Part shown: one piece after another, positions 12,233-32,738 of the stretch
How the letters are laid out: the number at the start of each line of letters is the position of its first letter
Position numbering within the stretch: the first letter of the stretch is position 1
Assembly (NCBI GenBank): GCA_964497795.1
Contig: CAZCEZ010000007.1
Location: 3,655 to 67,654 of the forward strand
Source of the DNA: an uncultured Acidimicrobiaceae bacterium
Lineage (GTDB): Bacteria > Actinomycetota > Acidimicrobiia > Acidimicrobiales > Salinilacustritrichaceae
Length of the DNA stretch: 64,000 nt
Direction of reading: 5' to 3'
Position numbers and translations under genes: made by a program
Notes under the pieces: generated by a model
Told to the model about the DNA's origin: nothing
The model's input: only the letters and a program-made list of their open reading frames with translations
The model's database searches: none

Positions 12233-12287
12233 GGGGATCTGGTCCGGGTCGGGCGGCGGGACGCCGGGGGCGCCGGCCCTGCGGTGT

Positions 12288-13661
12288 CTAGCGCCCGGAG
12301 AGGGTGACGCCCGGGATGAGGAGGGTGACGCCGCCGGTGCCGCCCGGCTGCCACTCGACGTCCGCGCCGACGTGGGACACGTCGAGCAGGAGCCGCTGCA
12401 GCGTCGAGGCCAGCGTGGCCTCCTTGATCGGCTCGGCCCGCTCCCCGCCCCGGACCCGGAGGCCCTCGACGGAGACGGAGAAGTCGCCCGAGATCGGGTT
12501 CACGCCCGAGTGGAGGCCGCCCAGGTTGGAGGCGAGCACGCCGTCCTCGACGGTGGCGAGGAGGGACTCGAGATCGCCCTCGCCCGGGGCCACGGTCAGG
12601 GCCCGGGCCGAGATCGAGGGACGGGACGAGATGCCCCGGGCCGCCGACGCGGTGGACGTCGTGCCGGCCCGCCGGGCCGACGCCGTGTTGTGGAGGAAGC
12701 CCTCGAGGACCCCGTCGGCCAGCAGCGGGACCCGCCGTGAGGCCAGCCCCTCGTCGTCGTGGGTGCTGGCGCCGAGCGACGCCGGGTTGGTCGGGTCGTC
12801 GACGATCGTGAGCAGCGGCGAGCCGACCTGCTCCCCCACGCGGTTGGCGAAGGGCGACCGGCCCTTGGCCACGGCCTCGCCGCCCAGCATCCCGGACACG
12901 ATGCCGAGCAGCGTGGCGGTCAGGCGCGGCTCGAGGATCAGGGTGACGGTCGCCGACTCCGGCTTGGTCGAGCCGATCTTGGCCAGCAGGCGCTCGACGG
13001 CGTCGTCGGCCGCCTCCTGGACCGAGACCTCCGACGGGCCGCGGCCCACCGACATGCCGCCGGCGATGACCGAGGCGTCCCCGTCGTCGGCCAGGGCCGA
13101 CACCGAGCAGTAGGCGATGGTGCGGCGCCCGCCGACGGAGATGCCCGTGGAGGTGGCGACTGCGAACGCCGACTCCGCGTCGGTGTAGCTGGCGGCGCGC
13201 ACGCCCCGGACGCGGGGGTCGGCGCCCCGCACCAGCCGCTCGAGCTCGATGGCCCGGGCCACCTTCTCGTCGGTCGCCGTGCGGAGCACGTCGTCGTCGT
13301 AGGGGTCGAGGTCGACGGCGGCCACGCCGTCGGGCTCGGCCAGCCCGGCCCACTCGTCGGGCTCGGCGAAGGGCAGGTTGTCACGGGCCTCGGCGAGGGT
13401 CTCGGCCACGATGGCGTCGTCGAGGCTGGTCGCCCACGCGAAGCCGGTGCGGCCGTCCTTGACGACGCGGATGCCGATGCCGGCCGAGCCGGCCTGCGTG
13501 AGGGACTCGATCTCGCCCTGGTAGGCGTCGACCTCGGTCCGGGTGCCGGTGGCCACGTAGGCCTCGACCTGCTCGCCCGGCGCGGCCTGCGCGGCGACCC
13601 GGTCGGCGAGGGCCCGGAGGGAGGCGACGTCGGCGCCGGTGATCGGTTCGGTGGTGGTCAT
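12288..13661 (-). CDS. pmbA: PmbA/TldE-family metalloprotease partner (no HExxxH)
   Basis: ATG at 13661 with GAGGAG upstream. 'GIGIRVVKDGRTGFAWAT', 'SGDFSVSVEGLRVRGGE'. Confidence 0.85.
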   Translation of the reverse strand: MTTTEPITGADVASLRALADRVAAQAAPGEQVEAYVATGTRTEVDAYQGEIESLTQAGSAGIGIRVVKDGRTGFAWATSLDDAIVAETLAEARDNLPFAEPDEWAGLAEPDGVAAVDLDPYDDDVLRTATDEKVARAIELERLVRGADPRVRGVRAASYTDAESAFAVATSTGISVGGRRTIAYCSVSALADDGDASVIAGGMSVGRGPSEVSVQEAADDAVERLLAKIGSTKPESATVTLILEPRLTATLLGIVSGMLGGEAVAKGRSPFANRVGEQVGSPLLTIVDDPTNPASLGASTHDDEGLASRRVPLLADGVLEGFLHNTASARRAGTTSTASAARGISSRPSISARALTVAPGEGDLESLLATVEDGVLASNLGGLHSGVNPISGDFSVSVEGLRVRGGERAEPIKEATLASTLQRLLLDVSHVGADVEWQPGGTGGVTLLIPGVTLSGR

Positions 13662-13684
13662 GTCGTGCTCCTCTGCGCCGCGGC

Positions 13685-15076
13685 TCAGGCCGCGGTCCCG
13701 CCGATGGTCAGCTGCGCGACGCGCAGGGTGGGGCAGCCGTCGCCGACGGGCACGCCCTGGCCGTCCTTGCCGCACGTGCCGGGCCCGCCGAAGGCGAAGT
13801 CGTCGGCGATGACCTCGATGTCGGCCAGGCACTGGGGGCCGTTGCCGATGAGGTTGCCCTCGCGGATCGGCTCGGTGATCTCGCCGTCCTCGATCAGGTA
13901 CGCCTCCTGCATGCCGAACACGAAGTCGCCCGACGCCGTGTTGACCTGCCCGCCGCCGAGCTTGGCGACGTAGACGCCCCGCGGCGTGCCGGCGATGACC
14001 TCCTCCGGGGTCGCGGTCCCGTTCTCGAGGAACGTGTTGGTCATCCGGACCATCGGGAGGTGCTGGTAGGACTGGCGGCGGCCGTTGCCGGACAGGTCAC
14101 GCCCCTCCTTGCGGTTGCGCAGGAAGTCCCACATGTAGTCGGTGAGGACGCCGTCCTCGATGAGGACGTTGCGCTGGGCGGGGGTGCCCTCGTCGTCGAC
14201 GGCGAAGGCGCCCCACTCCTCGGCGATCGTGCCGTCGTCCACGAGCGTGACGCCCCGGGCCGCGACCTGCTCGCCGACGCGGTTCGCGTAGACGCTGGCA
14301 CCCTTGTCGACGAGGTCCTTCTCGAGGCCGTGGCCGCACGCCTCGTGGAACAGCACGCCGCCCGACCCGGCGCCGATGACGACGGGCAGCTGGCCGGCGG
14401 GGGCGGGACGGGCCCGCAGCTTGGTGATGGCCTGCTCGGCGGCGACGGCGGCGAAGGCCTCGACGTCGATCCGGTCGAACAGCTCCCACCCGATCGTCAG
14501 CCCGATCGTGTTGCGACCGGTCTGCATGCCGGTGTCGCCGGTGGCCACGGCGCTGACCGAGAAGAAGGTGCGGACCTGGTCGTCGGTGGTGAGCAGGCCG
14601 TCGGAGTTGGCCACGAGGATCCGGCGACGGCTGCCGCCGACGCCCGCGCTGACCTGGGAGATCTCCCGCCCCGCGGCCCGCGCCGCCTCGTCGGCCCGCC
14701 GCAGGACGGCGACCCGGTCGGCCTTGGGCACGTCGTCGAGGAGGATCTGCGGGTCGGAGGGGTTGGCGTGGCTGGTGCGGGTGAGGGCCACCTCGCGCAC
14801 CCCGCCGCCGCCCTGGCGGGCGGCGGCCGACGCGGCCTCGGCGGCGCGCAGCAGCCCGGCCTCGGAGAGGTCGGCGGTGTGGGCGAAGCCGGTGGTGTCG
14901 CCGACGACGACCCGGATGCCGGCGCCTCGGTCGCGACCGGAGGACAGCTGCTCCACCCGGCCGTCGTCGAGCATCGCGTTGCCGTTCTGCTTGTCCTCGG
15001 CGAAGACCTCGGCGAACTCGCCGCCGGTCTGGAGCGCCTTGTGCAGGACTCGCTGGAGCGTGGGCTCCTCGATCAT
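13685..15076 (-). CDS. tldD: TldD metalloprotease
   Basis: ATG at 15076 with GGGAGG upstream. Metal motif 'HEACGHGLE', plus 'GIRVVVGDTTGFAHT' and 'SGDFVFGMQEAYLIEDGE'. Confidence 0.9.
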   Translation of the reverse strand: MIEEPTLQRVLHKALQTGGEFAEVFAEDKQNGNAMLDDGRVEQLSSGRDRGAGIRVVVGDTTGFAHTADLSEAGLLRAAEAASAAARQGGGGVREVALTRTSHANPSDPQILLDDVPKADRVAVLRRADEAARAAGREISQVSAGVGGSRRRILVANSDGLLTTDDQVRTFFSVSAVATGDTGMQTGRNTIGLTIGWELFDRIDVEAFAAVAAEQAITKLRARPAPAGQLPVVIGAGSGGVLFHEACGHGLEKDLVDKGASVYANRVGEQVAARGVTLVDDGTIAEEWGAFAVDDEGTPAQRNVLIEDGVLTDYMWDFLRNRKEGRDLSGNGRRQSYQHLPMVRMTNTFLENGTATPEEVIAGTPRGVYVAKLGGGQVNTASGDFVFGMQEAYLIEDGEITEPIREGNLIGNGPQCLADIEVIADDFAFGGPGTCGKDGQGVPVGDGCPTLRVAQLTIGGTAA

Positions 15077-15190
15077 CGGTGCCTCCCTGGGCAACGTCGG
15101 GGTGGGGTGGGGACAGGGTCGCGCAGCGCCGCCGGGCGTGCCGGGCGGGCCGTGACGGCGCGCGGGCCGTCGACGACGTAGCGTGCGGAC

Positions 15191-15571
15191 GTGGGAGCAC
15201 TGCAGACCGGACTGTCCGCCGCGGTGGAGCTCGTGGTGGGCGAGGGCGACACCGCCATCGCCATCGGCTCGGGCGACGTCCCGGTGCTGGCCACGCCCCG
15301 CCTGGTGGCGCTGTGCGAGCAGGCCGCGGTGGAGGCGCTCGCCGGCCAGCTGCCGGAGGGCTCCACCTCGGTCGGCATGCGGGTGCAGGTCGACCACCTG
15401 ATGCCCACGGCGGTCGGCCTGTCGGTCCGTGCCGAGGCCACGCTCGAGAAGGTCGCCGGGCGCCGGCTCACCTTCACGGTGTCGGCCTCGGACCCCCGGG
15501 GGCTCGTGGCCGCCGGGCGCGTCACCCGCGTCGTGGTCGACGTCGAGCGGTTCCTCGAGAAGGCGCGCTGA
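15191..15571 (+). CDS. Hotdog-fold thioesterase (FlK-like family)
   Basis: 'GSGDVPVLATPRLVALCEQAAVEAL', 126 aa. Confidence 0.7.
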   Translation: MGALQTGLSAAVELVVGEGDTAIAIGSGDVPVLATPRLVALCEQAAVEALAGQLPEGSTSVGMRVQVDHLMPTAVGLSVRAEATLEKVAGRRLTFTVSASDPRGLVAAGRVTRVVVDVERFLEKAR

Positions 15572-15575
15572 ACCG

Positions 15576-16010
15576 TCACGACTGGAGCACCTCGGTCACG
15601 CTGAGCTGGCCGGGCCGGTAGCTGCCCGCGACCGTCACCTCGTCCCGCGACCAGGCCGGGGCGTCGTCGGGGACGGCGAGGTCGAGCCGGCTCGGGTCCA
15701 GACCGACCAGGTCGATCGCCACGCCCTCGCAGTAGGGCGGGTCCTCCCGGTCCCGGGCCGAGCACAGGATCGAGCGCCGCTCACCGACGAAGACGTAGCC
15801 GGTCACGACGACCTGCTCCTCGGGCGCGACCAGCTCGAGCACCTCCTGCACCGACAGCGCGTCCTCCGCGACGTCGGCCACGTCGGGCCCCGCGTCGCCG
15901 TCGAAGAAGACGACGAGGATCAGCGCGACGACGGCGAAGCCGAGCGCGGCGGAGACCACCGACTGGACCAGGACGCGGGTGCGCGTCGTGCGACGGCGGC
16001 CCGGGCTCAC
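15576..16010 (-). CDS. Hypothetical membrane-anchored protein (last gene of the long operon)
   Basis: N-terminal 'RRRTTRTRVLVQSVVSAALGFAVVALILVVFF' TM anchor. The start overlaps the upstream stop (GTGA at 16007-16010). Third-position GC is high. Confidence 0.55.
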   Translation of the reverse strand: MSPGRRRTTRTRVLVQSVVSAALGFAVVALILVVFFDGDAGPDVADVAEDALSVQEVLELVAPEEQVVVTGYVFVGERRSILCSARDREDPPYCEGVAIDLVGLDPSRLDLAVPDDAPAWSRDEVTVAGSYRPGQLSVTEVLQS

Positions 16011-16555
16011 GCCCGGTCGACGGCCACGACGGTGCGGCTCGCGACGTCGATGGTCAGGACGGCCGCCGTCGGCAGGTCGGGCAGGTCGAGGTCGTCGGCC
16101 GCGGCCAGGACGATCCCGCTGTCGAGGACCAGGCGACCGTCCTCGGCCGACCGGAGCGAGCCGGTGACGTAGGCGAGGTCCGGGTCACCCGGGACGCGCA
16201 CCACCGAGGCGATGCTGCCGAGCCAGACGACCTCGCCGTCCTGGATGCCGACCTGGACGTAGTTGCCCTCGTAGCGGCCCACGGGCTGGAGGGAGCCGTC
16301 GCCGGCCGCGAAGGACTGGAGGTCCTCGTGGACGTCGTAGGTCCGGTCGTCGTCCAGGGTCAGGCTCGTGAAGTCGTCGGCGACCTCGACCAGGACGCCC
16401 TCGGCGTCGGGGACGCGGGGGGAGCCGTCGAGGGGCACGAACAGCTCCGGTGCGCCGTCGTCGTCCCCTCCGCCGCAGGCCGCCCCACCGAGGGACAGGA
16501 GCGCGGCCAGGGCGACGAGGCCGACGAGGGCCCGGATCCGGCGGTCGGCGCGCAC
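16007..16555 (-). CDS. Hypothetical lipoprotein
   Basis: GTG at 16555, 1 nt after the upstream stop. Signal/lipobox 'RIRALVGLVALAALLSLGGAAC|GGGDDDG'. Confidence 0.6.
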   Translation of the reverse strand: MRADRRIRALVGLVALAALLSLGGAACGGGDDDGAPELFVPLDGSPRVPDAEGVLVEVADDFTSLTLDDDRTYDVHEDLQSFAAGDGSLQPVGRYEGNYVQVGIQDGEVVWLGSIASVVRVPGDPDLAYVTGSLRSAEDGRLVLDSGIVLAAADDLDLPDLPTAAVLTIDVASRTVVAVDRA

Positions 16556-16556
16556 G

Positions 16557-17747
16557 TCAGCTGTCCGTCCCGGCGGCCGGGGCACCGGTGGTGGTCGCGT
16601 CGGTCGACCCGTCGGCCGGGTCGCCCTCGTCGCCGGCCGCACCGTCGACGACGGGCTTCACGCCGAGGTTGACGAGCACGGCGAGGTCGGCCTCGATCGT
16701 GTCGTCCTCGGGGAGCTCGACGGCGAGGGACGGATCGCCGACGTCGAGCAGCTCGTAGGACGTGGAGCGGAACCGGATGCGGGGATCGCCCCGCAGGTCG
16801 AGGAACGTGTTCAGGCCCTCGAGCAGGAACTGGCCGAGCTCCTCGCCCTCGAGCTGGCCGACGGTGGCCTGGAAGCCGTCGCGGATCTGGTCCGGCGCGT
16901 TCTCCGAGACGAGGCGGACCATGTAGTCCTCGAAGTCGTCGAGCCGGGACGGGGTGAGGCCGATGTCCTCCATGACGCGGATGACCTGGCCGTCCTTGAC
17001 GTAGACGACCATCTTCCGGAAGACGGCCTCGCCGGGCAGGTCGCCGTTCTGGGCCTCGGCCGCGGTCGGGAAGTTCGGCTGGACCAGGTCGTAGCGGGTG
17101 ACGCCCGATCCCTCCTCGGGGAGGGGGAAGGGGTCCTCGTCGGCGCGGTACACCAGGCTGATCGAGTCCGGGTCGTACTCCACGAAGACGACCTCTGTCG
17201 CCAGCGTCGCCCGGCGGGCCCGTCCGAGCTGGCGGAAGGCGTCGAAGATCGGGTCCACGCCGGGGTCGGTGGCGGCGTCGACCGACACGAGCTGGGGCGG
17301 CGCGCCGCCGGGGTCGACGACCCACCGGCGGGCCTGCAGGGCGTCGAACACGGAGATGCCGTCGAGCTCGGTCTCGGTGTCGACGAGGCCCGTCATGTCC
17401 TTGTCCACGAACCGGCCGAGCTCGCCCGGCTGGAGGAAGCGGACGGCGACGACGTCGTCGGACACGACGCGCTCCAGGACCGGCTCGCCGTCCTCGAGGA
17501 GGCGGGCCTGGTAGCGGAAGTCGTCCTCGACGATCCCCTGGACGACGGTGGTCCGACCGGAGGGCGTGACCTCCTGGTACACGAAGCGGTGCGCCTGCAG
17601 GGCCGTCTCGTCGAGGACGTCGCGCACCTCCTCGGAGTCGGTGTCGTCCTGCGCGCAGGCGCCGGCCAGCACGCCGAGCAGACCGACGAGCACGGCGATG
17701 CGGGCCCAGCGTCGACGGGGGTGGGACCGGGGCGTTCGGCCGATCAC
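16557..17747 (-). CDS. Hypothetical lipoprotein (396 aa)
   Basis: GTG at 17747 overlaps the upstream stop (GTGA). 'RRRWARIAVLVGLLGVLAGAC|AQDD'. No family recognised. Confidence 0.65.
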   Translation of the reverse strand: MIGRTPRSHPRRRWARIAVLVGLLGVLAGACAQDDTDSEEVRDVLDETALQAHRFVYQEVTPSGRTTVVQGIVEDDFRYQARLLEDGEPVLERVVSDDVVAVRFLQPGELGRFVDKDMTGLVDTETELDGISVFDALQARRWVVDPGGAPPQLVSVDAATDPGVDPIFDAFRQLGRARRATLATEVVFVEYDPDSISLVYRADEDPFPLPEEGSGVTRYDLVQPNFPTAAEAQNGDLPGEAVFRKMVVYVKDGQVIRVMEDIGLTPSRLDDFEDYMVRLVSENAPDQIRDGFQATVGQLEGEELGQFLLEGLNTFLDLRGDPRIRFRSTSYELLDVGDPSLAVELPEDDTIEADLAVLVNLGVKPVVDGAAGDEGDPADGSTDATTTGAPAAGTDS

Positions 17748-18268
17748 GGCTGGATCTCCAGTGCCTCGCGGAGCAGCGATCGGCCGCCCTCGTAGCCGTC
17801 GCGGGTCGACAGCAGGAACAGGTGGTCGTCGTCGAACCAGATCGTCAGCGTCTGGCGGTCGGCACCGGCCACGTAGAGCTCGGTGCCGCCCATCCGGAAC
17901 TGCGCCGCGCCCGCGCTGACGCGGTTCACCAGGCTGGCGCGGAAGGTCTCGTCGTCGGCGTCGACGTCGTCGGCGAAGCGGCCGATCTGCAGCGTGGCCT
18001 GCAGCAGGTCGTCCTCCCGGAACGAGTAGAGGCCGGCGGCCTCGAGGTACGGCCGCTGGGCGCCCGACAGCGTGTCGGCGATGTCCTCCTCCTCGACGGC
18101 CAGGCCGTTCACCTCGAGGGGGATCGACGCGTCGAGCTCGGCGATCGTCCGGTCGTCGGCGGCCGACACGGCACCGTCGTCGCCTCCGCTGCACGCACCG
18201 ACGAGCGCGGCCGCGGCCACGACCGGCGCGAGGGCCCGCCGCAGGGGGGTCCGGGACGTCACCGTCAC
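17744..18268 (-). CDS. Hypothetical lipoprotein (174 aa)
   Basis: 'LRRALAPVVAAAALVGAC|SGGDDG'. GTGA overlap with the cupredoxin-like gene stop. Confidence 0.65.
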   Translation of the reverse strand: MTVTSRTPLRRALAPVVAAAALVGACSGGDDGAVSAADDRTIAELDASIPLEVNGLAVEEEDIADTLSGAQRPYLEAAGLYSFREDDLLQATLQIGRFADDVDADDETFRASLVNRVSAGAAQFRMGGTELYVAGADRQTLTIWFDDDHLFLLSTRDGYEGGRSLLREALEIQP

Positions 18269-18789
18269 TGGACCACGATGACCTTGCCGCCCGCGTAGGG
18301 CCGCGTGTCATCGGTGTAGTTGAAGTCGCCCACGAACTCGGGCCGGAAGATCTCGACGGCGCCGGGCGCGATGGGGCCGACGCTGACGCCGAGGTTCTCG
18401 AACACGACGGTCCGGGCCTGGGTGCCGATGTTCTTGAAGCGGATGGTGCCGCCGGTGCGGATCTGGACCACGTTCGGGGTGAACTGGCCGAGGCCGTCCT
18501 GGCCGTCGTCGCGGATGACGACCTCCTCGGACACCTCCTGCTCCTCGGGCGCGACCGTCGTGGTGGTCTGGGCGACCGTGGTGGTGGTCTGCGCGGCGTC
18601 GGCGACCGTGGTCGTGGTCTGCTCGGGGATCGTGTCGTCGACCACGGTCGTGGTCGTCGTCGACCCGCCGAGGGCCTCGGACTGCTCGGGGTCGAACTCG
18701 AAGAGGGCGTCGTCGCCGACGGAGTTCTCCTCCCCGCATGCGGCGAGGACCATGCCGGCGGCGAGGAGGAGGGCGAGGAGGCGGGTCAT
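18265..18789 (-). CDS. Cupredoxin-like lipoprotein lacking copper ligands
   Basis: ATG at 18789 (ATGA overlap with the ABC gene stop). 'MTRLLALLLAAGMVLAAC|GEEN', a Thr-rich linker, then 'FTPNVVQIRTGGTIRFKNIGTQARTVVFENLG...IAPGAVEIFRPEFVGDFNYTDDTRPYAGGKVIVVQ', a plastocyanin/EfeO-N-like beta-sandwich pattern. Confidence 0.6.
   Translation of the reverse strand: MTRLLALLLAAGMVLAACGEENSVGDDALFEFDPEQSEALGGSTTTTTVVDDTIPEQTTTTVADAAQTTTTVAQTTTTVAPEEQEVSEEVVIRDDGQDGLGQFTPNVVQIRTGGTIRFKNIGTQARTVVFENLGVSVGPIAPGAVEIFRPEFVGDFNYTDDTRPYAGGKVIVVQ
18551..18621 (-). repeat. Three copies of GCGACCGTNGTGGTGGTCTG (encode 'QTTTTVA' x3)
   Basis: Copies at 18551-18570, 18572-18591 and 18602-18621. Confidence 0.75.
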
Positions 18790-21700
18790 GCGAGGCTCCC
18801 GGATCGGTTGATGGCGGCCTCGGAGGTGCCGAGGTAGGACTCGATGACGCGCTCGTCGTTCAGCACGTCGTCGGGCAGGCCGCGGGTGACGAACGTGCCC
18901 TGCTCGAGGGCGATGAGCTCGTCGGAGACAGCGGAGATGAGCGGCATGTCGTGCTCGATGATGAGGATCGAGCAACCGGTCTCGAACTTGACCCGGCGCA
19001 GCAGCGGGGCGAGGCCCTCGGCCTCGGCCTGGGCGATGCCCGAGGACGGCTCGTCGAGGAGCAGCACCTTGGGCTCGGCGGCGAGCACGCAGGCCAGGTC
19101 GACGATCCGGCGCAGGCCGGTGGACAGCTCGCGGACGAACTTGTCGCGGAAGGCACCGATCTCGAGGAGCTCGATGAGGCGCTCGGCGCGGACCCGGGCC
19201 CGGCGCTCGGCCTTGCGGACCTGCGGCGCGGAGATGGCGCCGAGGATCGAGGAGCGGACCTCGAGCTTCTGCTCGAGGGCGATCAGGATCGTCTCCTCGA
19301 CGGTCAGCGAGGGGAAGAGGCGGGCGTCCTGGAAGCGGCGGATGAGGCCCATGCGAGCCCGCTCCTGGGGCGAGAGGTCGTTGAGCTCGACGCCCTGGAA
19401 GCGCACGACGCCGCCGTCGAGGGGCTGGGCCCCCGAGATCAGGTCGAAGATGGTCGTCTTGCCGGCGCCGTTGGGACCGATGAGGCCGAGGACCTCGCCC
19501 TCGCGCAGGGCGAAGGAGACGTCGTTGACGGCCCGGACGCCGCCGTAGTCCTTGACGAGCCCCTCGACCTCGAGCGCCGGGGCGGCGTCGGCGAGCTCGA
19601 TCGGCCCACCGGCGGCGGCCGTGGTGCCGGAGGTGAGGGCGCCGGTGCCCTTGACGTACACGGCGCGGAGGATGTCGGGGCGGTCGAGCAGGTCCTGGGT
19701 GGGCCCGTAGAACCGGACCTCGCCCTTCTCCATGAAGATCGCCTTGTCGGCGATGGTCAGGGCGACGTTCACCGACTGCTCGACGACGATGACGGTGACG
19801 CCTCGCCGGTTGATCTCCTTGACGATCTCGACCAGCTGGCCGACCACGGCGGGCGACAGGCCGAGGGAGAGCTCGTCGATCAGGAGCATCTTCGGCTTGC
19901 ACAGGAAGGCCTGGGCCAGCGACAGCTGCTGCTGCTCGCCGCCCGAGAGCGTGCCGGCCGGGACGTCGAGGCGCTCGGTCAGGCGGGGGAAGATCTCGAA
20001 GACCTCGCGCATCCGGGCCTTGGCGTCCTCGACGTCGTCGGACATCCAGTTGCCGAGCAGCAGGTTCTCCCGCACCGACATGGACGGGAAGATGCCCCGG
20101 CCACCGGGCATCTCGATGACGCCGCGGGCAGCGATCTCGTTGGACGGCATCTGGGTGATGTCGCGCCCGTCGAAGATGACCGCACCGGAGCGGGCCGGCT
20201 GCACGCCGCACATGGCCCGCAGCACCGTGGACTTGCCGGCGCCGTTGGTGCCGAGGAGGGCGAGGATCTCGCCCTCCTCCACGTCGAAGTCGACGTCGAA
20301 GAGGACCTGGACGTTGTCGTAGTAGACGTCGAGGTTGCGGGCCACGAGCAGCTTGGTCTCGCCGGACAGCTTCGCCCGCTGGTACTCCTGGCTGGCGACC
20401 GACTTGGCGAAGGCGGCCCGCATGTCGAGCTCGAAGAACGGGGCGGCGGACAGGTCGATGGCGGCACCGACGAGGCTGAGCAGGAACGCCATGATCCAGA
20501 TGGCGTCGTAGCCGTAGTCGCCGTTGAGCTGGCGGGCGATCGGCAGCCACAGGACCGGACCGACGAGCCGGGACAGGTCGGTCAGCTGCAGACCGAAGGT
20601 CCGGATGTTGGCCGGGATGACCTGGACGTTCACGACCGCGGCCGACGGCCCGATCATGGAGGCGCCGAAGGAGATCACGGCGAGGGCGCCGACGATGACC
20701 CACAGCGGCGGGGTCAGGATGTACAGCAGCGGCCAGGGTGCGGCGACGAGGCCGAAGACCGCCACGATGTAGATCACCCGGGACGGGTTGACCCGCGTGA
20801 GCCGGTCCACGAGCGTCCCGCCGTAGAGGCCGCCCGCGATCCCGGTGAGGGCGGCCGGGATGGTGAGCAGGCCGAGCTCGAAGGCGTTGAGCCCGTACTC
20901 CTCGGCGGCGAAGAAGATGAAGAAGAGGCCCGACACCGAGCTCGCGCCGCTGGCGAAGATGTCGGCGATGGTGCGGCGCCGGATGGTGCGGACGGCGAAC
21001 GTGGTCCGGAACGACTCGGCGAAGGACAGGGGCTCGTCCTCGACGGCGGCCTGCTCGTCGGTGGCGCCGAGGGCCTTGCGCTCGAAGAAGCCGCGGATCG
21101 GCTCGCGGAGCGTGAAGATCGAGATCACGCCCATGACGAGCAGCGGCACGCCGATGATCTTGAACGCCGTCTGCCAGCCGAGCTCGACGATGAGGTAGCC
21201 GGTGAAGAGCGGCGCCGCGATCTGCCCGATGCGCCCGAGGGCGCCGTTGAAGGCGAAGGCCTTCCCCCGCACGTCGTAGGGGTAGTAGTCGGCGAACAGG
21301 CTCAGGCGGGGCACGCCGGATCCGTCGTCGGCGGCGGCGTTCGCGACCCGGCTCGTGCTCAGGGGCGAGAAGGAGTTGGACAGGCCGGCGAAGAACGTGG
21401 CCACGCCCGAGAGCATCGTCCCCACCCAGATGAAGGGGGTGCGGCGGACCCGGTCGGCGTAGTAGCCGGCCAGGATCGAGGCGAAGACCGACACGGTGCC
21501 CACGAGGGCGACGATGCCGATGATGTCGCCGACGTCGATGTTGAGGTCGCGGGCGATGTCCGGGCCGGCGAGGGTGAACGCCGCCGAGTCGAGCTGCTGG
21601 AAGAAGGAGATGCCCGACAGCGTCAGCAGCGGGGCGAGGCCGTAGGGCGACTTCCGCAGGCGGGAGAAGTCGAAGGAGTCCTTCGCCGCCTGCCTCCAGC

Positions 21701-22067
21701 TGCGCCGGCGGGTCTCGCCGGCCTCGTTCTCGGCCTCGCCCGGGGCGAACAGCCCGCCGGTGTCGAAGTCGGGCTCGTCGAGGAGGTGGATGCGGCCGGC
21801 GGCCTCGTCGGAGGCGGGCGACTCGAGGAAGTCGTCGGCCTGGGGCTCGCGCCGCCGGTCGTGCGGGAGCGTGGTCGGCGCCGTGTGAGCGGCCCGGGAC
21901 TCGACGCCGGCGTTGCCGACCTCGTGGGTCGTGGCCGGCCGACCGGGGCGGGCCTGCTCGTGCGGGGTCGAGCGCTCGGCGCCGGCCGGGGCGGGCGCGG
22001 TGCCGGCACTGCGCAGGGGCGCTCGGCGGGCTCGACGGCGGGGGCCGGTGGGGTCGTCGATGCTCAT
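18786..22067 (-). CDS. Tri-domain protein: 12-TM MFS domain + LivF-like ATPase + LivG-like ATPase (1093 aa)
   Basis: MFS motif A 'LAGYYADRVRRTPFIWVG' and about 12 hydrophobic helices (aa ~140-560). ATPase 1: 'LLGTNGAGKST', 'LSGGEQQQL', 'LLIDELSLGL' (LivF-like). ATPase 2: 'LIGPNGAGKTT', 'LSTGLRRIVDLA', 'LLLDEPSSGI' (LivG-like). AGGAG sits 7 nt before the ATG at 22067. Confidence 0.85.
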   Translation of the reverse strand: MSIDDPTGPRRRARRAPLRSAGTAPAPAGAERSTPHEQARPGRPATTHEVGNAGVESRAAHTAPTTLPHDRRREPQADDFLESPASDEAAGRIHLLDEPDFDTGGLFAPGEAENEAGETRRRSWRQAAKDSFDFSRLRKSPYGLAPLLTLSGISFFQQLDSAAFTLAGPDIARDLNIDVGDIIGIVALVGTVSVFASILAGYYADRVRRTPFIWVGTMLSGVATFFAGLSNSFSPLSTSRVANAAADDGSGVPRLSLFADYYPYDVRGKAFAFNGALGRIGQIAAPLFTGYLIVELGWQTAFKIIGVPLLVMGVISIFTLREPIRGFFERKALGATDEQAAVEDEPLSFAESFRTTFAVRTIRRRTIADIFASGASSVSGLFFIFFAAEEYGLNAFELGLLTIPAALTGIAGGLYGGTLVDRLTRVNPSRVIYIVAVFGLVAAPWPLLYILTPPLWVIVGALAVISFGASMIGPSAAVVNVQVIPANIRTFGLQLTDLSRLVGPVLWLPIARQLNGDYGYDAIWIMAFLLSLVGAAIDLSAAPFFELDMRAAFAKSVASQEYQRAKLSGETKLLVARNLDVYYDNVQVLFDVDFDVEEGEILALLGTNGAGKSTVLRAMCGVQPARSGAVIFDGRDITQMPSNEIAARGVIEMPGGRGIFPSMSVRENLLLGNWMSDDVEDAKARMREVFEIFPRLTERLDVPAGTLSGGEQQQLSLAQAFLCKPKMLLIDELSLGLSPAVVGQLVEIVKEINRRGVTVIVVEQSVNVALTIADKAIFMEKGEVRFYGPTQDLLDRPDILRAVYVKGTGALTSGTTAAAGGPIELADAAPALEVEGLVKDYGGVRAVNDVSFALREGEVLGLIGPNGAGKTTIFDLISGAQPLDGGVVRFQGVELNDLSPQERARMGLIRRFQDARLFPSLTVEETILIALEQKLEVRSSILGAISAPQVRKAERRARVRAERLIELLEIGAFRDKFVRELSTGLRRIVDLACVLAAEPKVLLLDEPSSGIAQAEAEGLAPLLRRVKFETGCSILIIEHDMPLISAVSDELIALEQGTFVTRGLPDDVLNDERVIESYLGTSEAAINRSGSLA

Positions 22068-22076
22068 CTCGGGCTC

Positions 22077-24386
22077 CTAGGCGCCCACCGGGCTGGAGCC
22101 CAGCAGGGGGTTCTTCTCGGGTTCGGGCGCGGGGCGCTCCACCTCGGAGCGGGCCGCCTGGGCGAACCGCTCGGCGGCCGACTGCCCCCGACCCCGGTAC
22201 AGCTCGGAGCGCAGCGACCAGCGCTGGTCGCTCGGCAGGGCGGCGAGGCCGGAGTCGCCCGACAGCTCGTCGAGGGGCACCTCGCGACGCTCGATGGCGT
22301 CTGCGTCGTAGTCCGCGAACAGGCTCGGCACCACGATCTGCTCCCGCTGGGCGACGACCCGCAGCGCGGAGTTCCGCACGCCCTGGACCAGCGAGATGAA
22401 GCCGCCGGGGAAGGCCAGGATGATGAAGATCGTGCCGCCGTTGTTCAGGAACGTGCGGAAGATGCCGGCGGTGAGGAAGTACTGGAGCGACTCGAAGTAG
22501 GCGGCGCCGAGCAGGGCGCCGGCCACGGCCCCGACGCCGCCGATGATGGCGGTGTTGAACGCCTCGAAGCTGGGGAGCACGCCGTACTGGGCCGCCGTGA
22601 TGCCCTGCTGCTGGTGGACGAACACGGCACCGGCGAAGCCGGCGATCGCCCCGGAGATCCCGAAGGCCAGCAGCTTGGTCCGGAACACGTCCACGCCGAA
22701 GGCCTGCACGTTCGTCTCGTTCTCCCGCAGGGCGATCAGGATGCGACCGGCCCGGGTGCGCCGCAGGTTCCCGACGACGACGATGGTCGCGACCAGGGCG
22801 GCCACGCACAGGAAGTACATCGAGGTGTCGTCGGCGAAGTCGAGGAAGAACAGCGTCGGCCGCTCGATGGCCGCATCGGGCTGGAGCCACCCGAAGTACC
22901 GGTCGTCGAAGAAGACGTTCTCGATGGTGAAGGCGAAGGCGAGGGTGACCGGGAGCAGGAACAGCCCCTTGATCCGCAGCGCCGGGATGCCCACCGCGAT
23001 GGCGACGGCGCCGGCGATCGCGGTCGCCACGGGGACGGCGAGCCAGAACGTGAGGCCGGCGGTGGTGGTGAGCGCGGCGGCGACGACGGCGCCGACGGCG
23101 GCGAAGCCCCACTGCCCGACCGACACCTGGCCGCCCCAGCCGGTCAGGACGACCAGCGAGATGACCACGATCGTCGACAGGGCGATGGTCGAGGCGAGCG
23201 ACACGAACCCGGACGAGGCGACGAAGGGGATGATGCCCAGCGCCAGGAGCCCGACGGCGTACAGGCCGAGGCGCACGTTGCGCACCACGGGCAGCGAGGC
23301 CAGCGCCTCGGGGACCGGCCGGGGCTCGTCGGCGGCGGCCCAGGACACCTGCGCCTGCTCGACCCGGTCGAGGCCCTTGGACTGCGAGATCAGGCCGACG
23401 GCGAGGACGACGAGGTAGAACACCGCGATCAGCGGGGTGTCCTCGGGGTAGGCGAAGCGGAACGAGCGGACGAGGATCGACAGGAGGAGCGTGGCGACCA
23501 CGGCCGTGGGCAGCTTCTCCATGCGGGCGAGGACCGCGGCGGCGAGCGAGATCAGCAGCACGGCCGGCGACAGGTTGTTGGCTGCGGCCGGCGTCTGCGT
23601 CATGGCCGTGCCGACGGTGGTGAGGCCGCCCAGCACCGCCGAGACCACGAACACGCCGATGACCAGGCCGGGCACGCCGATCCCGAGCAGACCGGCCCGC
23701 TCGGGGTTCTCGGCCAGGGCCCGGACGGCCGTGCCGACCTTCGTGTAGCGCAGGGTCGCGCCGATGGCGACCAGGACGAGGAGGGTGACCTCGAGCACGA
23801 ACAGCTCGGCGAAGCCGAAGGGCACCGGGTAGTCCCCGATGAAGAACTCGAAGCCGGCGAGGGGCAGGTAGCCCCCCTCGGTCAGGGCGACGCCGCCGAG
23901 CTGCTCCTGCTGGGGCAGCTGGGCGATGTCGGAGAAGAAGGGCAGCTGGGCGATGTTCGGGGCGAACTGCACCAGGAACAGCGCGGTGACCGCGGTGACC
24001 ACGGTCAGCACGAGGCGGGAGGCCTTGAGGAACCGGATCGACACGACGCCGGCGGCGAGGCCGACGGCGGCCGAGACGGCGACGCTGATCAGGACGGCGA
24101 GCAGGAACGGGACGTCGGTCAGGCGCACGAACAGGAAGAAGGCCGTGGAGCCGAACACGCCGAAGGCCGTCTGCGCGAAGTTGATGACCCGGATCGACCG
24201 GTACACCAGCACGATGCCCACCGTCGTGAGGCTGGCGAGCGCACCGCTGACGAGGCCGTCGAAGACGATGCCGGCGGGCACGCCGCCGTCCATGACCAGC
24301 AGGCTCAGCACCAGCGTCAGGACGGTGGCGCCGCCGAGGAGGACGGCCGACCTCAGCCGGGGATCGGAGGGCAGGAACCTGGTCAC
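22077..24386 (-). CDS. Fused LivH-LivM type branched-chain/HAAT ABC permease (769 aa)
   Basis: GTG at 24386 (GTGA overlap). The N-terminal half is LivH-like ('GIVLVYRSIRVINFAQTAFGVFG', 'RYTKVGTAVRALAENPERAGLLGI'). The C-terminal half is LivM-like ('LTGWGGQVSVGQWGFAAVGA', 'RAGRILIALRENETNVQAFGV'). Confidence 0.85.
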   Translation of the reverse strand: MTRFLPSDPRLRSAVLLGGATVLTLVLSLLVMDGGVPAGIVFDGLVSGALASLTTVGIVLVYRSIRVINFAQTAFGVFGSTAFFLFVRLTDVPFLLAVLISVAVSAAVGLAAGVVSIRFLKASRLVLTVVTAVTALFLVQFAPNIAQLPFFSDIAQLPQQEQLGGVALTEGGYLPLAGFEFFIGDYPVPFGFAELFVLEVTLLVLVAIGATLRYTKVGTAVRALAENPERAGLLGIGVPGLVIGVFVVSAVLGGLTTVGTAMTQTPAAANNLSPAVLLISLAAAVLARMEKLPTAVVATLLLSILVRSFRFAYPEDTPLIAVFYLVVLAVGLISQSKGLDRVEQAQVSWAAADEPRPVPEALASLPVVRNVRLGLYAVGLLALGIIPFVASSGFVSLASTIALSTIVVISLVVLTGWGGQVSVGQWGFAAVGAVVAAALTTTAGLTFWLAVPVATAIAGAVAIAVGIPALRIKGLFLLPVTLAFAFTIENVFFDDRYFGWLQPDAAIERPTLFFLDFADDTSMYFLCVAALVATIVVVGNLRRTRAGRILIALRENETNVQAFGVDVFRTKLLAFGISGAIAGFAGAVFVHQQQGITAAQYGVLPSFEAFNTAIIGGVGAVAGALLGAAYFESLQYFLTAGIFRTFLNNGGTIFIILAFPGGFISLVQGVRNSALRVVAQREQIVVPSLFADYDADAIERREVPLDELSGDSGLAALPSDQRWSLRSELYRGRGQSAAERFAQAARSEVERPAPEPEKNPLLGSSPVGA
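23913..23956 (-). repeat. 17-nt direct repeat with 27-nt period inside the LivH half
   Basis: GGGCAGCTGGGCGATGT at 23913-23929 and 23940-23956, encoding 'IAQLPFFSD/IAQLPQQEQ'. Confidence 0.7.
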
Positions 24387-25609
24387 CGGAGGTCCTCGGG
24401 CAGCGGGTCGGCCTCGACCTGACCCCGTTCGTAGGTGGCGTCCACCGAGTTGCCCAGCGCATCGGTCACCAGCGACGTCTCGCCGATGACGAGGGCGCCG
24501 AGCTCGGTGCTCACGACGTACTCGGCCTCGATGGTGACCGTGCCGGCCGCCGTGGCCCGGGTCTCGGAGACCTCGACGAGCCACCCGTCGAGCAGTGTCC
24601 CGCACGCGTCGACGGATCGACGCTCGTTGACCTGGCCCTCGATGCGGCGGGTCTCGCCGGAGGTCGGGTCGACGGCCGTGGAGGTCCAGAACTCGCCGGC
24701 CTGGACGGGCAGCGGCAGGTACAGCAGCGGCGACGACGGGTTGAACGAGCCCTGGTTGGCTCCGTTGGCGTCGATGTTCTCGACCTGGTTCAGGACCAGG
24801 CCGCGGTTCGGCTCGCCGGTCTGGATCCGCTGGCCGCCGGGGAGCTGCTCCTGGGCCTCGTCGGGGACGTCGACGTCCTCGCCGGTGATCTCCGACGCCG
24901 CGCCCTCGGCCGTCATGGTGACGCCCTCGGGGTCCTGGGTGACGTTGGCGCCGGCGGCGACGGGCGCCGTGTTGACCGTCCAGGTGGTCAGCTCGGTCAG
25001 GCCGGACGGCAGCGGCGCGAGGGTCTCGTAGCGGTAGCGCATGCCCTGCTGCGCACTCGGGTCGTCGGTGTCGACGGCGGTCCCGGCACCGAGCTCCTCG
25101 ACGGCGCGCACGGCGCGGGTCTCGAAGCCCTCGACCTGCACCGTGATCTCGCCGGCGGCGCCGACGGAGGTGGTGGTGATGTCCCGCTTCCACCGGTAGA
25201 CGCCGACCTCGGGGACCGTGGTCACCTCCTCGGGGGCCTGGGTGGCCGGGCTCGAGCCGATGGGCGCCGTCGGGCACTCGACCTCGGGCGCCGGCGGCTG
25301 GAGGTTGGTGAACCGGTTGAACCGGTCCGGGAGCGTGTTGCGGAACGGCACCGTGAGCGCACCGGTGCCGGTGTCCACGGGCCGCCCCTGCTGGGCGGCC
25401 TGGGCCGGCACGGCCGTGGGCAGCTCGATCGGGGCGTCCTCGGCCGGGGCCTCGAAGCCGAACGCCACGTCGGCCTGCAGGGCCTGGATGTCCACGCCGG
25501 GCTCGTCGGGCTCGACGCAGGCGGTGGTCACGAGGGCCAGGCCCAGGGCGCCGACGGCGAGCCGGCGGGTGCTGGGGCGGTGCTCAGGTCGGGGTCGGGA
25601 CACGTTCAC
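24383..25609 (-). CDS. Hypothetical lipoprotein (408 aa)
   Basis: 'RRLAVGALGLALVTTAC|VEPDEPG'. No family recognised. The start overlaps the 3' end of the transglutaminase-like gene. Confidence 0.65.
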   Translation of the reverse strand: MNVSRPRPEHRPSTRRLAVGALGLALVTTACVEPDEPGVDIQALQADVAFGFEAPAEDAPIELPTAVPAQAAQQGRPVDTGTGALTVPFRNTLPDRFNRFTNLQPPAPEVECPTAPIGSSPATQAPEEVTTVPEVGVYRWKRDITTTSVGAAGEITVQVEGFETRAVRAVEELGAGTAVDTDDPSAQQGMRYRYETLAPLPSGLTELTTWTVNTAPVAAGANVTQDPEGVTMTAEGAASEITGEDVDVPDEAQEQLPGGQRIQTGEPNRGLVLNQVENIDANGANQGSFNPSSPLLYLPLPVQAGEFWTSTAVDPTSGETRRIEGQVNERRSVDACGTLLDGWLVEVSETRATAAGTVTIEAEYVVSTELGALVIGETSLVTDALGNSVDATYERGQVEADPLPEDLR

Positions 25610-30384: not shown

Positions 30385-30839
30385 GGTTCGGGACCCCTTG
30401 GAAGTCGTGTCGATGCTCGGACGCCGCCGTCGGTCGGCGCCCGCCCCGGCGGACACGGTAGGAGCGTCCAGCCGTCGGGGCGATGTCGAAGGGGTTCTGC
30501 ACGGCCCGCGGGATCTCCTCCCCAGGTGCCCGAGGAAACGCGCCGTTCACGAGGCAGGTCGCGAACGCTCGGGAGGAACGGTGCGCGATGTGACAGGGGC
30601 GACACCCCGGAACCACGCGGTTCGTCAGGAACGCCGGCCCCGTAATGCTCCGTTCACAGGCCTGACGTGGGCCCGGTGCCAGGCGTTGCCTACCGTCTGT
30701 CCCGTTCGCGCAGATCGGCTGGTCTCGGCGTGCGCTCCGGTGCAGGAGACGGGCCGCCTGCGGGCGAATATGGACAGCAGGGACGGTCGAGGGAACCAGA
30801 TCGCCCCCACCAGGAACGACACGGGAGGCTCGCGCCGAC

Positions 30840-32738
30840 ATGGCCGACACGCCGGAGACGAACGGGAGCGAGGACGCGATCGACGAGGTCGTCGTCGACG
30901 ACCTCCTCGACGACGAGGAGGAGGGCTCCGGCTGGGCGCTCCGCTACCCGCCGCTCCTGTCGATGCTCGGCGGGCTGCTGATCGCGATCCTCGTGATGCC
31001 CTCGGCGCTCAACCTGCCGCAGAACAACCCGAGCCAGACCCTCGAGTTCGCCCCGGTGCCCCCGGAGGACTCCGACGACGACCCGCCCCCGCCGGAGGGC
31101 AACTTCGACCAGCTCGGCCTCGGCTCCTCCGAGAGCCTGAGCGGCGACGGCGCCCTGGGCGGCGACGGCGCCGGCACGACCTCCACCACGCTCCCCCCGC
31201 CCCCGGTCCAGGACGGCACCGGCGAGAACGTCTCCCAGTTCCGCTGCGTCGAGGGCCGCCAGACCGAGGACCCCCTCTCCCCGCCCTGCGTCGCCTTCTT
31301 CGACGGCGACAACTTCGGCCAGACCTACCAGGGCGTCACCGAGGACGAGATCAGCCTGCTCGTCTACCTCGACGGCGGCGTGGGCGACACCGGCTCCTCC
31401 CGAGGCCGCGAGCAGCGCCCGCTCAACGAGTTCTTCGACCTCGCCGGCGCCGACGCCGAGCCGAAGGCCGACGAGCACGTGATGCTCCGCATGCTGCGCG
31501 GCTGGCAGACCTACTTCAACACCCGGTACCAGACCTACGGCCGCTTCGTCCGCTTCTACGTCTACTTCTCCGGCAACGACGGCACGGCCGAGGCCCGCCG
31601 TGCCGACGCCGCCGAGGTCTTCAAGCGGGCCCAGCCCTTCGCCACCGTCGTCGGGGCCGAGTTCCACGGCGCCCTCGACGCCTACACCGACTCGATGCTC
31701 AAGCGCGGGGTGCTGAACTTCGGCAACTACGTCGGCCAGGACGCCGCCTTCTACGAGCGGTTCCCGAAGCTGCTGTGGGGCTTCGCGCCGAGCCTGGAGA
31801 TCCAGGCCCAGCAGTACTCCGACGTGCTGTGCAAGAAGTACGCGCCCAACCCGGTCGACCACTCCGGCGACTACCAGGGCGAGCCCCGCAAGTACGGCAT
31901 CGTCTACACGACCGATCCCGGCTTCCCCGGCCTGCGCAAGTTCAAGGACACCGTCGTCGAGCGCTTCTCCCAGTGCGGTGGCCAGATCGCGGAGGAGGCG
32001 ACCTTCCCCGTGTCCGGCATCGCCCTCGACAACTCCCAGACCCCCCAGTACGCCATCGACGCGATGACGCGCTTCCAGCAGGCCGACGTCACCACGATCA
32101 TCTGGCCCGGGGGCTACGAGTCGAAGTTCTCCAAGGCCGCCGCCCAGATCAACTACTTCCCCGAGTGGATCCTGGCCGGCGACGGCGACCTCGACGGCGA
32201 GTACGGCAACCAGGTGAACCAGGACCAGACGGTCTGGCAGTACGCCGTCACCACGTCGAACCAGCCCTTCGTCCCCGACGACATCACCCGCCGCATCTGC
32301 TTCCAGGCCTACCGGTCGATCGACCCGCAGGCCCCGCGCCAGGACGTCAACGGCTACGCCTGCGACTTCTACGAGAACCTGCGCCAGCTCTTCATCGGCA
32401 TCCAGGTCGCCGGGCCCCGCCTCGGCCCGACCTCGATCGACAAGGGCTTCCACGCCATCCCGGCGATCAGCTCGCAGGACGCCCAGGTGCCGGCCTGCTT
32501 CTACCTCCCCAACGACTACACCTGCATCAAGGACCTGGTGCTGGGTCGTTGGGACCCCGCCGCCCGCCCCGGTGCCAGCGACCCGGGCTGCTGGCGCTTC
32601 GCCGAGGGCCGTCGCTACCTCCGCGAGGAGATCCCCGACGGCAACGCCACCGCCCAGATGAGCCCGTCCGATCCGTGCCTCGGATACGACGACGGCTTCC
32701 GACTGAACGCCGCTCCCCCCGACACCGGAGTCCTGTGA
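30840..32738 (+). CDS. Membrane-anchored, Cys-rich periplasmic-binding-protein type 1 (LivK-like) candidate, 632 aa
   Basis: GGGAGG upstream of the ATG. TM 'LLSMLGGLLIAILVMPSAL', then a Pro/Asp/Gly linker. 'GVTEDEISLLVYLDGG', 'LRGWQTYFNTRYQTYGRFVRFYVYFSGNDG..EARRADAAEVFKRAQPFATVVGAEF' resembles actinobacterial LivK-family SBPs. The functional call is tentative. Confidence 0.55.
   Translation: MADTPETNGSEDAIDEVVVDDLLDDEEEGSGWALRYPPLLSMLGGLLIAILVMPSALNLPQNNPSQTLEFAPVPPEDSDDDPPPPEGNFDQLGLGSSESLSGDGALGGDGAGTTSTTLPPPPVQDGTGENVSQFRCVEGRQTEDPLSPPCVAFFDGDNFGQTYQGVTEDEISLLVYLDGGVGDTGSSRGREQRPLNEFFDLAGADAEPKADEHVMLRMLRGWQTYFNTRYQTYGRFVRFYVYFSGNDGTAEARRADAAEVFKRAQPFATVVGAEFHGALDAYTDSMLKRGVLNFGNYVGQDAAFYERFPKLLWGFAPSLEIQAQQYSDVLCKKYAPNPVDHSGDYQGEPRKYGIVYTTDPGFPGLRKFKDTVVERFSQCGGQIAEEATFPVSGIALDNSQTPQYAIDAMTRFQQADVTTIIWPGGYESKFSKAAAQINYFPEWILAGDGDLDGEYGNQVNQDQTVWQYAVTTSNQPFVPDDITRRICFQAYRSIDPQAPRQDVNGYACDFYENLRQLFIGIQVAGPRLGPTSIDKGFHAIPAISSQDAQVPACFYLPNDYTCIKDLVLGRWDPAARPGASDPGCWRFAEGRRYLREEIPDGNATAQMSPSDPCLGYDDGFRLNAAPPDTGVL

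Follow-up and report, generated by a model that had tools for sequence, protein, structure and literature searches.

Major facilitator superfamily (MFS) carriers and ATP-binding cassette (ABC) pumps are the two largest classes of transporters, and textbooks keep their mechanisms separate. The locus described here raises the question of what a protein does in which a complete MFS domain, very probably of the Spinster type, is joined to the motor of an ABC importer. The window analyzed is a stretch of 64,000 nucleotides from an uncultured Acidimicrobiaceae bacterium (assembly GCA_964497795.1, contig CAZCEZ010000007.1, positions 3,655 to 67,654). The gene in question, MFS-LivF-LivG, lies at 18786..22067 on the minus strand and encodes 1093 amino acids plus a stop, comprising a disordered N-terminal tail, the Spinster-like MFS domain, a LivF-type nucleotide-binding domain (NBD1) and a LivG-type nucleotide-binding domain (NBD2). 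It is almost certainly a real gene that encodes the ATPase subunit of a HAAT-type importer. For the protein as a whole, the best explanation, which we hold with moderate confidence, is that of a HAAT ATPase subunit carrying an active Spinster-like accessory pathway.

The initial annotation had described one uninterrupted open reading frame with a good Shine-Dalgarno sequence, and had given no strand. The frame (1093 codons) and the ribosome-binding site stand, with GGAG located 6 nt 5' of the ATG at 22067. The strand is minus; a plus-strand reading of 18786-22067 yielded no meaningful protein and was rejected. The ATG lies 9 nt past the TAG with which the upstream permease gene ends, and at the TGA stop (18786-18788) the following gene begins in an ATGA overlap. 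The GC content of the window is 74.5%, and GC at third codon positions (GC3) is 0.96–1.00 in one frame over the entire reading frame from 22067 to 18786. Since GC3 is steady in this single frame, with no frame switch, there is no compositional hint of a frameshift. Two longer overlapping frames, 18265-24462 (minus strand, 2065 codons) and 18738-24422 (plus strand, 1894 codons), are identified by their GC3 as non-coding shadow frames of high-GC DNA.

We considered the possibility that the fusion was an artefact, in which an error in sequencing or assembly, or a missed stop, had merged an MFS gene with livF/livG. The source is metagenome-derived, high-GC sequence, some gene calls among the homologs are clearly wrong (that for P0007 reads through into the next gene), and permeases are fragmented in metagenome-assembled genomes (MAGs) from long reads. 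However, when 83 homologous loci were compared, 79 of them, including one on a complete chromosome, had a single stop-free frame of at least 930 codons spanning the MFS domain and both NBDs. Contig ends cut two of the four exceptions. The sequence at the junction between the MFS domain and NBD1 is also conserved, with an invariant aspartate (D548). The continuous GC3 frame, the homologs found in GTDB species genomes and the 79 intact, independent loci already refute an artefact, which we regard as extremely improbable.

The N-terminal extension (residues 1–130; 21678..22067, minus strand, as for all domains of the protein) is variable, disordered and cytoplasmic, with a predicted confidence (pLDDT) below 50 for residues 1–122. 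Its length and sequence vary among 18 close homologs, and short conserved patches were seen in the nearest four only. The MFS domain (residues 131–545; 20433..21677) matched Pfam MFS_1 at residues 152–503 (E = 2.5e-37, 129 bits against a cutoff of 33.4). AlphaFold2, run with the 18 homologs, arranged residues 130–570 as 12 transmembrane (TM) helices with pLDDT values of 80–92, and a model of the MFS domain alone also had 12 (pLDDT 85.1, pTM 0.81), whereas a Kyte-Doolittle hydropathy threshold alone gave only about 8–9 clear helices. TM12 continues as a cytoplasmic helix (residues 546–571; 20355..20432) with the sequence FFELDMRAA, which includes D548. In the full-length model, this is one continuous helix from 520 to 567 (396–443 in the MFS-only model) that runs to the first β-strand of NBD1 at residue 572, so that the MFS domain and NBD1 are joined without a flexible linker. 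Residue conservation was assessed in 119 full-length family members, down to ≈27% identity, and D548 is 100% conserved among them.

NBD1 (residues 572–801; 19665..20354) is of the LivF/UrtE type, and NBD2 (residues 830–1093; 18789..19580) is of the LivG/UrtD type. The linker between them (residues 802–829; 19581..19664) is disordered, with pLDDT below 50 for residues 802–825, and has low conservation. Pfam ABC_tran (PF00005) matched twice (E = 8.6e-60), and the C-terminal tail matched BCA_ABC_TP_C (PF12399) at residues 1063–1083 with 25.7 bits against a cutoff of 25.5; this tail is annotated in most homologs too. The NCBIfam LivF/UrtE models scored best at residues 573–805 and the LivG/UrtD models at 830–1081. 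A Foldseek search with the full-length model returned mostly tandem-NBD proteins and P-glycoproteins and nothing on the MFS domain. The initial annotation had thus read the protein well: Pfam, NCBIfam and phmmer agree that MFS, LivF and LivG are in one polypeptide with F before G, all of the motifs it had quoted are present (GYYADRVRRTP between TM2 and TM3, GTNGAGKST, LSGGEQQQ, LLIDELS, GPNGAGKTT, LSTGLRR and LLLDEPS), the approximately 12 helices it had counted became 12 in the AlphaFold2 model, and the Pfam families it had expected were those found. It had named a missing MFS_1 match, fewer than 10 TM segments, or a frameshift or assembly artefact as grounds for abandoning the fusion; we found the match, the 12 helices and an intact frame.

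The initial annotation had also proposed a partnership with a LivHM permease, and this is borne out by the gene 9 nt upstream. It encodes a fused LivH-LivM permease of 769 amino acids (22077..24386, minus strand) with two BPD_transp_2 stretches (PF02653, E = 8.5e-54), and its GTG start at 24386 overlaps the stop of the gene before it (GTGA). A listed permease frame of 1066 amino acids, starting at 25277, over-extends; GTG 24386 is the true start. Of the 72 loci whose sequence extends far enough upstream for this count, 71 have a LivHM gene there on the same strand. The sole exception, L043 (MAG contig JBHIXO010000100.1), has no LivHM gene within 5 kb upstream and has a binding-protein-like gene divergently upstream; its permease may be elsewhere, the contig being short. 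In one long-read MAG the permeases are apparently fragmented. The genes from 30456 down to ≈16000 are all on the minus strand with ATGA or GTGA start-stop overlaps, and the same gene order is found in loci whose homologs are 64% and 55% identical.

A putative cognate substrate-binding protein of 632 amino acids with an N-terminal TM anchor is encoded divergently from the operon (30840..32738, plus strand), and appears to be a very divergent member of Peripla_BP_6. The protein itself had no match among Pfam, NCBIfam or PDB profiles, and an hhalign comparison with a canonical 407-amino-acid binding protein failed. In most of the distant paralogous loci, a TM-anchored protein of 555–617 amino acids is encoded just before the permease, and two of five tested passed the Pfam Peripla_BP_6 cutoff. 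The 632-residue protein matched these genes preceding LivHM by tblastn (E = 1e-20), and the profile of this binding-protein family matched a Pfam-annotated Peripla_BP_6 protein of 549 amino acids with 98% probability by hhalign (E = 2e-13 over 336 columns). Locus L001 likewise has a homolog of the 632-residue protein divergent from the operon. Judged from these gene sets, the system is a complete binding-protein-dependent importer of the HAAT type. Each paralog comes with its own permease and binding protein, and the MFS domain is therefore integral to every one of these systems. That LivHM and a binding protein are almost always present suggests that a conventional permease is what the NBDs chiefly serve.

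Both NBDs retain the Walker A motif, the signature, the Walker B Asp-Glu and the H-loop position, and these motifs are at least 90% conserved among the family members. In NBD1 (GTNGAGKST, LSGGEQQQ, LLIDELS) the H-loop position is a glutamine, in the sequence VEQS, as in LivF generally; NBD2 (GPNGAGKTT, Q913, LSTGLRR, LLLDEPS) has H1039. At the Q-loop position of NBD1, where an acidic or amide residue was looked for (as in PEGR), the protein has a glycine (Gly655, in MPGGRG), and so do 116 of 120 members. LivF domains without an attached MFS have an acidic residue at this position: PEGR in T. maritima 1JI0, which matches NBD1 with E = 1.4e-56 and has PEGR at the aligned Q-loop, and in the permease-F-G fusions P0019 and P0020; PESR in Pseudofrankia; and PDLE in Streptomyces. 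The MFS-fused LivF domains further share IDELS (instead of DEPS or DEAS after Walker B) and FMEKG. The glycine Q-loop and IDELS suggest an asymmetric ATPase dimer or a remodelled coupling to the membrane domains. The scores were below the NCBIfam equivalog cutoffs for LivG (306 against 362), LivF (255.5 against 441) and UrtD (294.6 against 304.1), and the substrate can therefore not be inferred from them. A urea transporter (UrtDE) was considered and rejected: the UrtE score of 313.4 exceeds its cutoff of 285.8, but is inflated by summing two NBD stretches, and UrtD is under its cutoff.

The MFS domain is very probably Spinster-like. A profile built from 16 diverse family members matched HnSpns (6E8J), a bacterial Spinster homolog (PMC10243590), best of all, with E = 2.1e-34; the next family, DgoT, was nine orders of magnitude worse (E = 2.4e-25). 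The most conserved loop motif of the family, REPxRG after TM6 (residues 321–326), aligns with REPPRG in HnSpns. With the MFS-only model, Foldseek ranked HnSpns (6e9c) first among many matching MFS structures, and the best superposition was on human Spns1 with lysophosphatidylcholine (9boi), with TM-scores of 0.73/0.82 and a root-mean-square deviation of 3.4 Å. Sequence identity to Spinster proteins is only ≈20%, and none of the curated NCBIfam MFS subfamilies came near its cutoff (best 62.9 bits against 395).

In HnSpns, Asp87-Arg91-Asp142 forms the motif-A charge relay and Asp41 and Arg122 form a buried pair, while Glu129 is described as the protonation “master switch” and Arg42 is involved in substrate binding (PMC9440201). 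The relay corresponds to D205-R209-D260 in the family and is essentially invariant (≈100%), and within motif A itself, between TM2 and TM3, D205, R206 and R209 are at least 97% conserved. The Asp41 equivalent, D160, is acidic in 83% of the members, and the equivalent of Arg122 in the B-like RxxxG motif of TM4, R240, is basic in 82%. The position of Glu129 (247) is not conserved, being R, K, G, Q, D or T (D247 in the window protein), and neither is that of Arg42 (161), which is arginine in 23 of 120 and S161 here, so that proton-coupled transport of the Spns type is not assured. The invariant residues of the MFS domain are all at the cytoplasmic face: motif A, D260/R267, E322-P323-x-R325-G326, E351, R354, R363/R364, P485/R489 and D548. 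The TM helices are the least conserved parts of the protein, with a top-residue frequency of ≈0.4, compared to 0.66–0.71 in the NBDs.

A scan of GTDB with one genome per species gave at least 575 matching stretches. The best 80 of these, on which the following taxon and identity figures are based, all cover residues ≈140–1092 at 39–60% identity and come from 62 assemblies. They are mainly MAGs of Acidimicrobiia/Acidimicrobiales, together with MAGs of Mycobacteriales and Frankiales and one “Ca. Solibacter” MAG. Two cultured strains are among the carriers: Jiangella asiatica 5K138 and Actinospongicola halichondriae Hal317, whose finished chromosome carries two copies. Three or four paralogs were seen in several MAGs. 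A word-indexed search gave 18 clusters of full-length homologs (53–100% identity), all from metagenomes or MAGs, that are named “MFS transporter” or carry an IMG double label only. The architecture count that the initial annotation had called for thus revealed a large, multi-paralogous family in at least 62 assemblies, mostly Acidimicrobiia MAGs, rather than a one-off.

A phmmer search with the MFS domain alone matched 3689 representatives, 583 of them at E < 1e-10. Among the best 150 matches, a LivF-type NBD directly follows the MFS domain in 68, of which 44 are complete MFS-F-G proteins (≈900–1060 amino acids) and 24 are MFS-F; of the other matches, many are fragments, and the domain order is always MFS-F-G. 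An alternative architecture is seen at locus L084 (8001-13030), where an MFS-LivF protein of 735 amino acids is followed by a LivHM-LivG fusion of 941. (A 549-residue Peripla_BP_6 protein, an amidase and an EamA gene are found near this system.) The systems of this second type, in which LivG is fused to the permease, carry the same NBD signatures (PGG Q-loop, IDELS and FMEKG); from the recurrence of these signatures, what stays constant is the MFS-LivF unit, which probably had a single origin. Fusion of Liv subunits is in itself ordinary in Actinobacteria, since Streptomyces and Pseudofrankia have LivHM-LivG with a free LivF and a binding protein. No MFS-LivF gene was present beside their LivHM-LivG genes, and the MFS domain is the unusual part.

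The arrangement that we propose is as follows. MFS-LivF-LivG is almost certainly the energising subunit of a HAAT (LivFGHM-like) importer, working with the fused LivHM and the putative membrane-anchored binding protein. By analogy with established ABC importer architecture, the tandem NBDs would lie beneath LivHM as an intramolecular head-to-tail dimer. ATP site 2, made up of Walker A and B, Q913 and H1039 of NBD2 and the LSGGEQQ signature of NBD1, would be canonical. The missing acidic residue in the Q-loop of NBD1 probably weakens site 1. Since a 12-TM MFS domain has both termini in the cytoplasm and the tether is a helix of 22 residues, the MFS domain would sit beside LivHM in the membrane and hold NBD1 at a fixed distance. 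The MFS domain itself is probably a conformationally active rocker switch rather than a dead anchor, because the fold, the two buried charges and the network of the inward gate have been kept down to ≈27% identity through repeated expansion of paralogs. More tentatively, an amphipathic or lipophilic solute with a functional tie to the imported substrate may take a second, Spinster-like route through this domain, for instance by export or flipping of a related compound, or by low-affinity uptake; this is the weakest step of the proposal. The tether, being short and rigid, would hold the two activities in a fixed ratio and might let each gate the other.

Several observations weigh against this proposal. 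The binding protein was assigned by remote homology only. No cavity residue besides D160 and R240 is conserved across paralogs, the equivalents of the Glu129 master switch and of the substrate-binding Arg42 have changed, and the location of all MFS invariants at the cytoplasmic face would also fit a purely regulatory or docking role. The two stand-alone members of the MFS subfamily that were examined were not in liv contexts, and so lend no support to an independent function of the module.

The same cytoplasmic-face invariants, which are gating elements and not cavity residues, speak for a regulatory or sensory module. Such a non-transporting MFS domain would report a membrane or solute state (the proton motive force, a lipid, or substrate outside or inside the cell) and gate the ATPase through the rigid TM12 helix, as a membrane-embedded counterpart of the C-terminal domains of MalK and MetN, or as a parallel to UhpC and other MFS “transceptors” and to the fusions of sensor kinases with MFS domains. 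The loss of the Glu129 and Arg42 equivalents, the continuous helix with its invariant D548 at the junction, and the changed Q-loop and Walker B neighbourhood of the attached NBD in every fused form, as expected from a remodelled coupling, are all consistent with this idea, and there is a precedent for the fusion of MFS to signalling domains in the SK-MFS proteins, TC 2.A.1.34 (PMC3924187). However, the buried D160/R240 pair and a confidently predicted, cavity-forming 12-TM fold have been kept over deep divergence, and the paralog-specific variation of the cavity is typical of substrate-specific carriers; a regulatory module is therefore rather unlikely, though it has more in its favour than the remaining alternatives. 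An ATP-coupled carrier is more doubtful. Here, closing and opening of the NBDs would drive or gate the rocker switch, making a primary-active MFS that works in parallel to LivHM or replaces it. The family has lost the proton switch at Glu129 but keeps an invariant charge relay, the connection from TM12 to NBD1 is a rigid helix, and L043 lacks a LivHM gene within reach. But L043 is a short MAG contig, and LivHM, which has its own coupling sites for both NBDs, is found in 71 of 72 loci with a binding protein nearby. Furthermore, TM12 of MFS proteins is a peripheral support helix, and pulling on it offers no obvious way to drive the switch. To our knowledge, no MFS protein is ATP-driven. Taken in this strict form, the idea is quite improbable.

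A looser coupling, in which the rigid TM12-NBD1 helix mechanically links the Spinster-like domain to the ABC motor so that ATP gates or drives the MFS domain, or the MFS domain gates the ATPase, is still unlikely, if somewhat less so; such coupled machines stay under consideration because Glu129 is lost, the charge relay is retained and the attached NBD has a remodelled Q-loop. Seeing the MFS domain as a passive anchor or scaffold, a relic that holds the ATPases at the membrane or aids assembly or localisation of the complex, is as improbable as the strictly ATP-coupled form. The TM helices are the least conserved parts of the protein, and actinobacterial Liv systems fuse their components freely, both of which would suit a relic. 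An anchor, however, has no need of 12 helices, two buried charges and the network of motif A, the TM4 aspartate and REPxRG, all of which more than 100 sequences and two architectures retain down to ≈27% identity, and Liv NBDs elsewhere need no anchor. The retention of the 12-TM fold, buried D160/R240 and the invariant motif-A relay across the 119 members thus makes a pure tether less likely, and we give it little weight. We continue to favour a HAAT ATPase subunit with an active Spinster-like accessory pathway.

Compared to the LivFGHM(J/K) and UrtBCDE importers of the HAAT family (TC 3.A.1.4), the present system has in common the LivF/LivG-type NBDs, BCA_ABC_TP_C, a BPD_transp_2 permease, a Peripla_BP_6-type binding protein and the operon organization. 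There, G and F are separate proteins, whereas here the NBDs are fused in the order F-G, the permease halves are fused as well, the binding protein is ≈560–630 amino acids long, TM-anchored and very divergent, and NBD1 has IDELS, lacks the acidic Q-loop residue and is attached to a 12-TM MFS domain. With HnSpns (6E8J/6E9C), MsSpns and human Spns1 and Spns2 (TC 2.A.1.49), the MFS domain shares the 12-TM fold, motif A, the TM4 aspartate of the charge relay, REPxRG after TM6, the buried pair equivalent to Asp41/Arg122 and the B-like RxxxG motif. The described Spns proteins are stand-alone, proton-coupled transporters of lipids or drugs, while this one is covalently joined to ABC ATPases. The actinobacterial fusions without an MFS domain (LivHM-LivG of ≈920–940 amino acids with free LivF in Streptomyces and Pseudofrankia, and the permease-F-G proteins P0019/P0020) belong to the same family and have the same tendency to fuse and a neighbouring Peripla_BP_6 protein, but their LivF keeps a PE[GS]R or PDLE Q-loop and DEPS or DEAS after Walker B. 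The systems with MFS-LivF (≈735 amino acids) and LivHM-LivG (941 amino acids), such as L084, have the same MFS subfamily and LivF clade and differ in that LivG is fused to the permease. The Spinster relationship, the LivH-LivM fusion, the divergent binding protein (30840-32738), the commonness of Liv fusions in Actinobacteria and the changed LivF Q-loop all go beyond the initial annotation.

Other transporters offer partial parallels. In MalK, in MetN (the C2 domain) and in ModC, extra modules on the NBD gate ATPase activity; these modules are soluble and C-terminal. ArsAB demonstrates that a secondary carrier can be coupled to an ATPase, although ArsA does not belong to the ABC NBDs, nor ArsB to the MFS. 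LplT is often fused to Aas. In LplT-Aas and in the SK-MFS proteins (TC 2.A.1.34), an MFS domain is tied to a cytoplasmic enzyme or signalling domain whose action is on, or in concert with, the compound transported, whereas here its partner is the motor of another transporter class. LplT is cited as an MFS lysophospholipid flippase, and the SK-MFS family is listed, in the same paper (PMC3924187). No description of an MFS protein fused to ABC ATPase domains was found in the open-access full-text literature. The sequences are public under generic names, and the architecture appears to be uncharacterized.

The genes around the transporter gave no consistent metabolic hint to its substrate. Upstream in the same operon, all on the minus strand, Pfam identified a MoxR AAA+ protein (29356-30456), a DUF58 protein (28022-29356) and a TgpA-like transglutaminase membrane protein (25606-28025), which are followed by a lipoprotein of 408 amino acids (24383-25609). 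MoxR-DUF58, the TgpA-like protein and a lipoprotein of the 408-residue type are linked to LivHM/MFS-F-G in 39 of the 83 loci, upstream in 16 and directly downstream in 23 (e.g., L001–L023, L024–L034 and L049), and this linkage in two gene orders suggests a functional link between the MoxR module and the transporter. MoxR, DUF58 and transglutaminase also make up the core of the PFNA cluster in bifidobacteria (PMC8430577). Conceivably, an amphipathic substrate is handed between the LivHM pathway and the lipid-facing Spns pathway, with a functional tie to the MoxR-DUF58-TgpA envelope module.

The gene whose ATG overlaps the stop of MFS-LivF-LivG encodes a cupredoxin-like lipoprotein with a Thr-rich linker (18265..18789, minus strand; Cupredoxin_1, E = 5.3e-7). 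In the homolog P0007, the gene call runs from MFS-F-G into this lipoprotein, which is probably an error. A lipoprotein of 174 amino acids (17744..18268, minus strand) follows and is conserved downstream in orthologous loci. Three further minus-strand genes, 16557-17759, 16007-16642 and 15576-16010, had no family matches; since counterparts much like them in size come after the transporter in L001 and L002, they may be part of the operon. Past the operon, the window contains (11390-15397, minus strand) a TldD/PmbA metallopeptidase pair (13685-15397 and 12288-13832) and the undecaprenyl-diphosphatase BacA (11390-12232), with no established link to the transporter.

The fusion has been kept over long evolutionary time, with several paralogs per genome and with a specific change in the ATPase loop that contacts the membrane domains. 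Should its two halves prove to be coupled, the family would constitute a natural experiment on a rocker-switch carrier that is gated by, or gates, an ATPase, and it would be the first case of a transporter that runs an MFS fold and an ABC engine as a single machine. If the halves are independent, it would be a clear case of the obligate pairing of two pathways for related solutes. In either event, bacterial Spinster homologs gain a genomic context, consisting of the binding protein, the permease and the envelope module, in which their physiological substrates may be sought, and the cultured carriers Actinospongicola halichondriae and Jiangella asiatica make the question directly testable.

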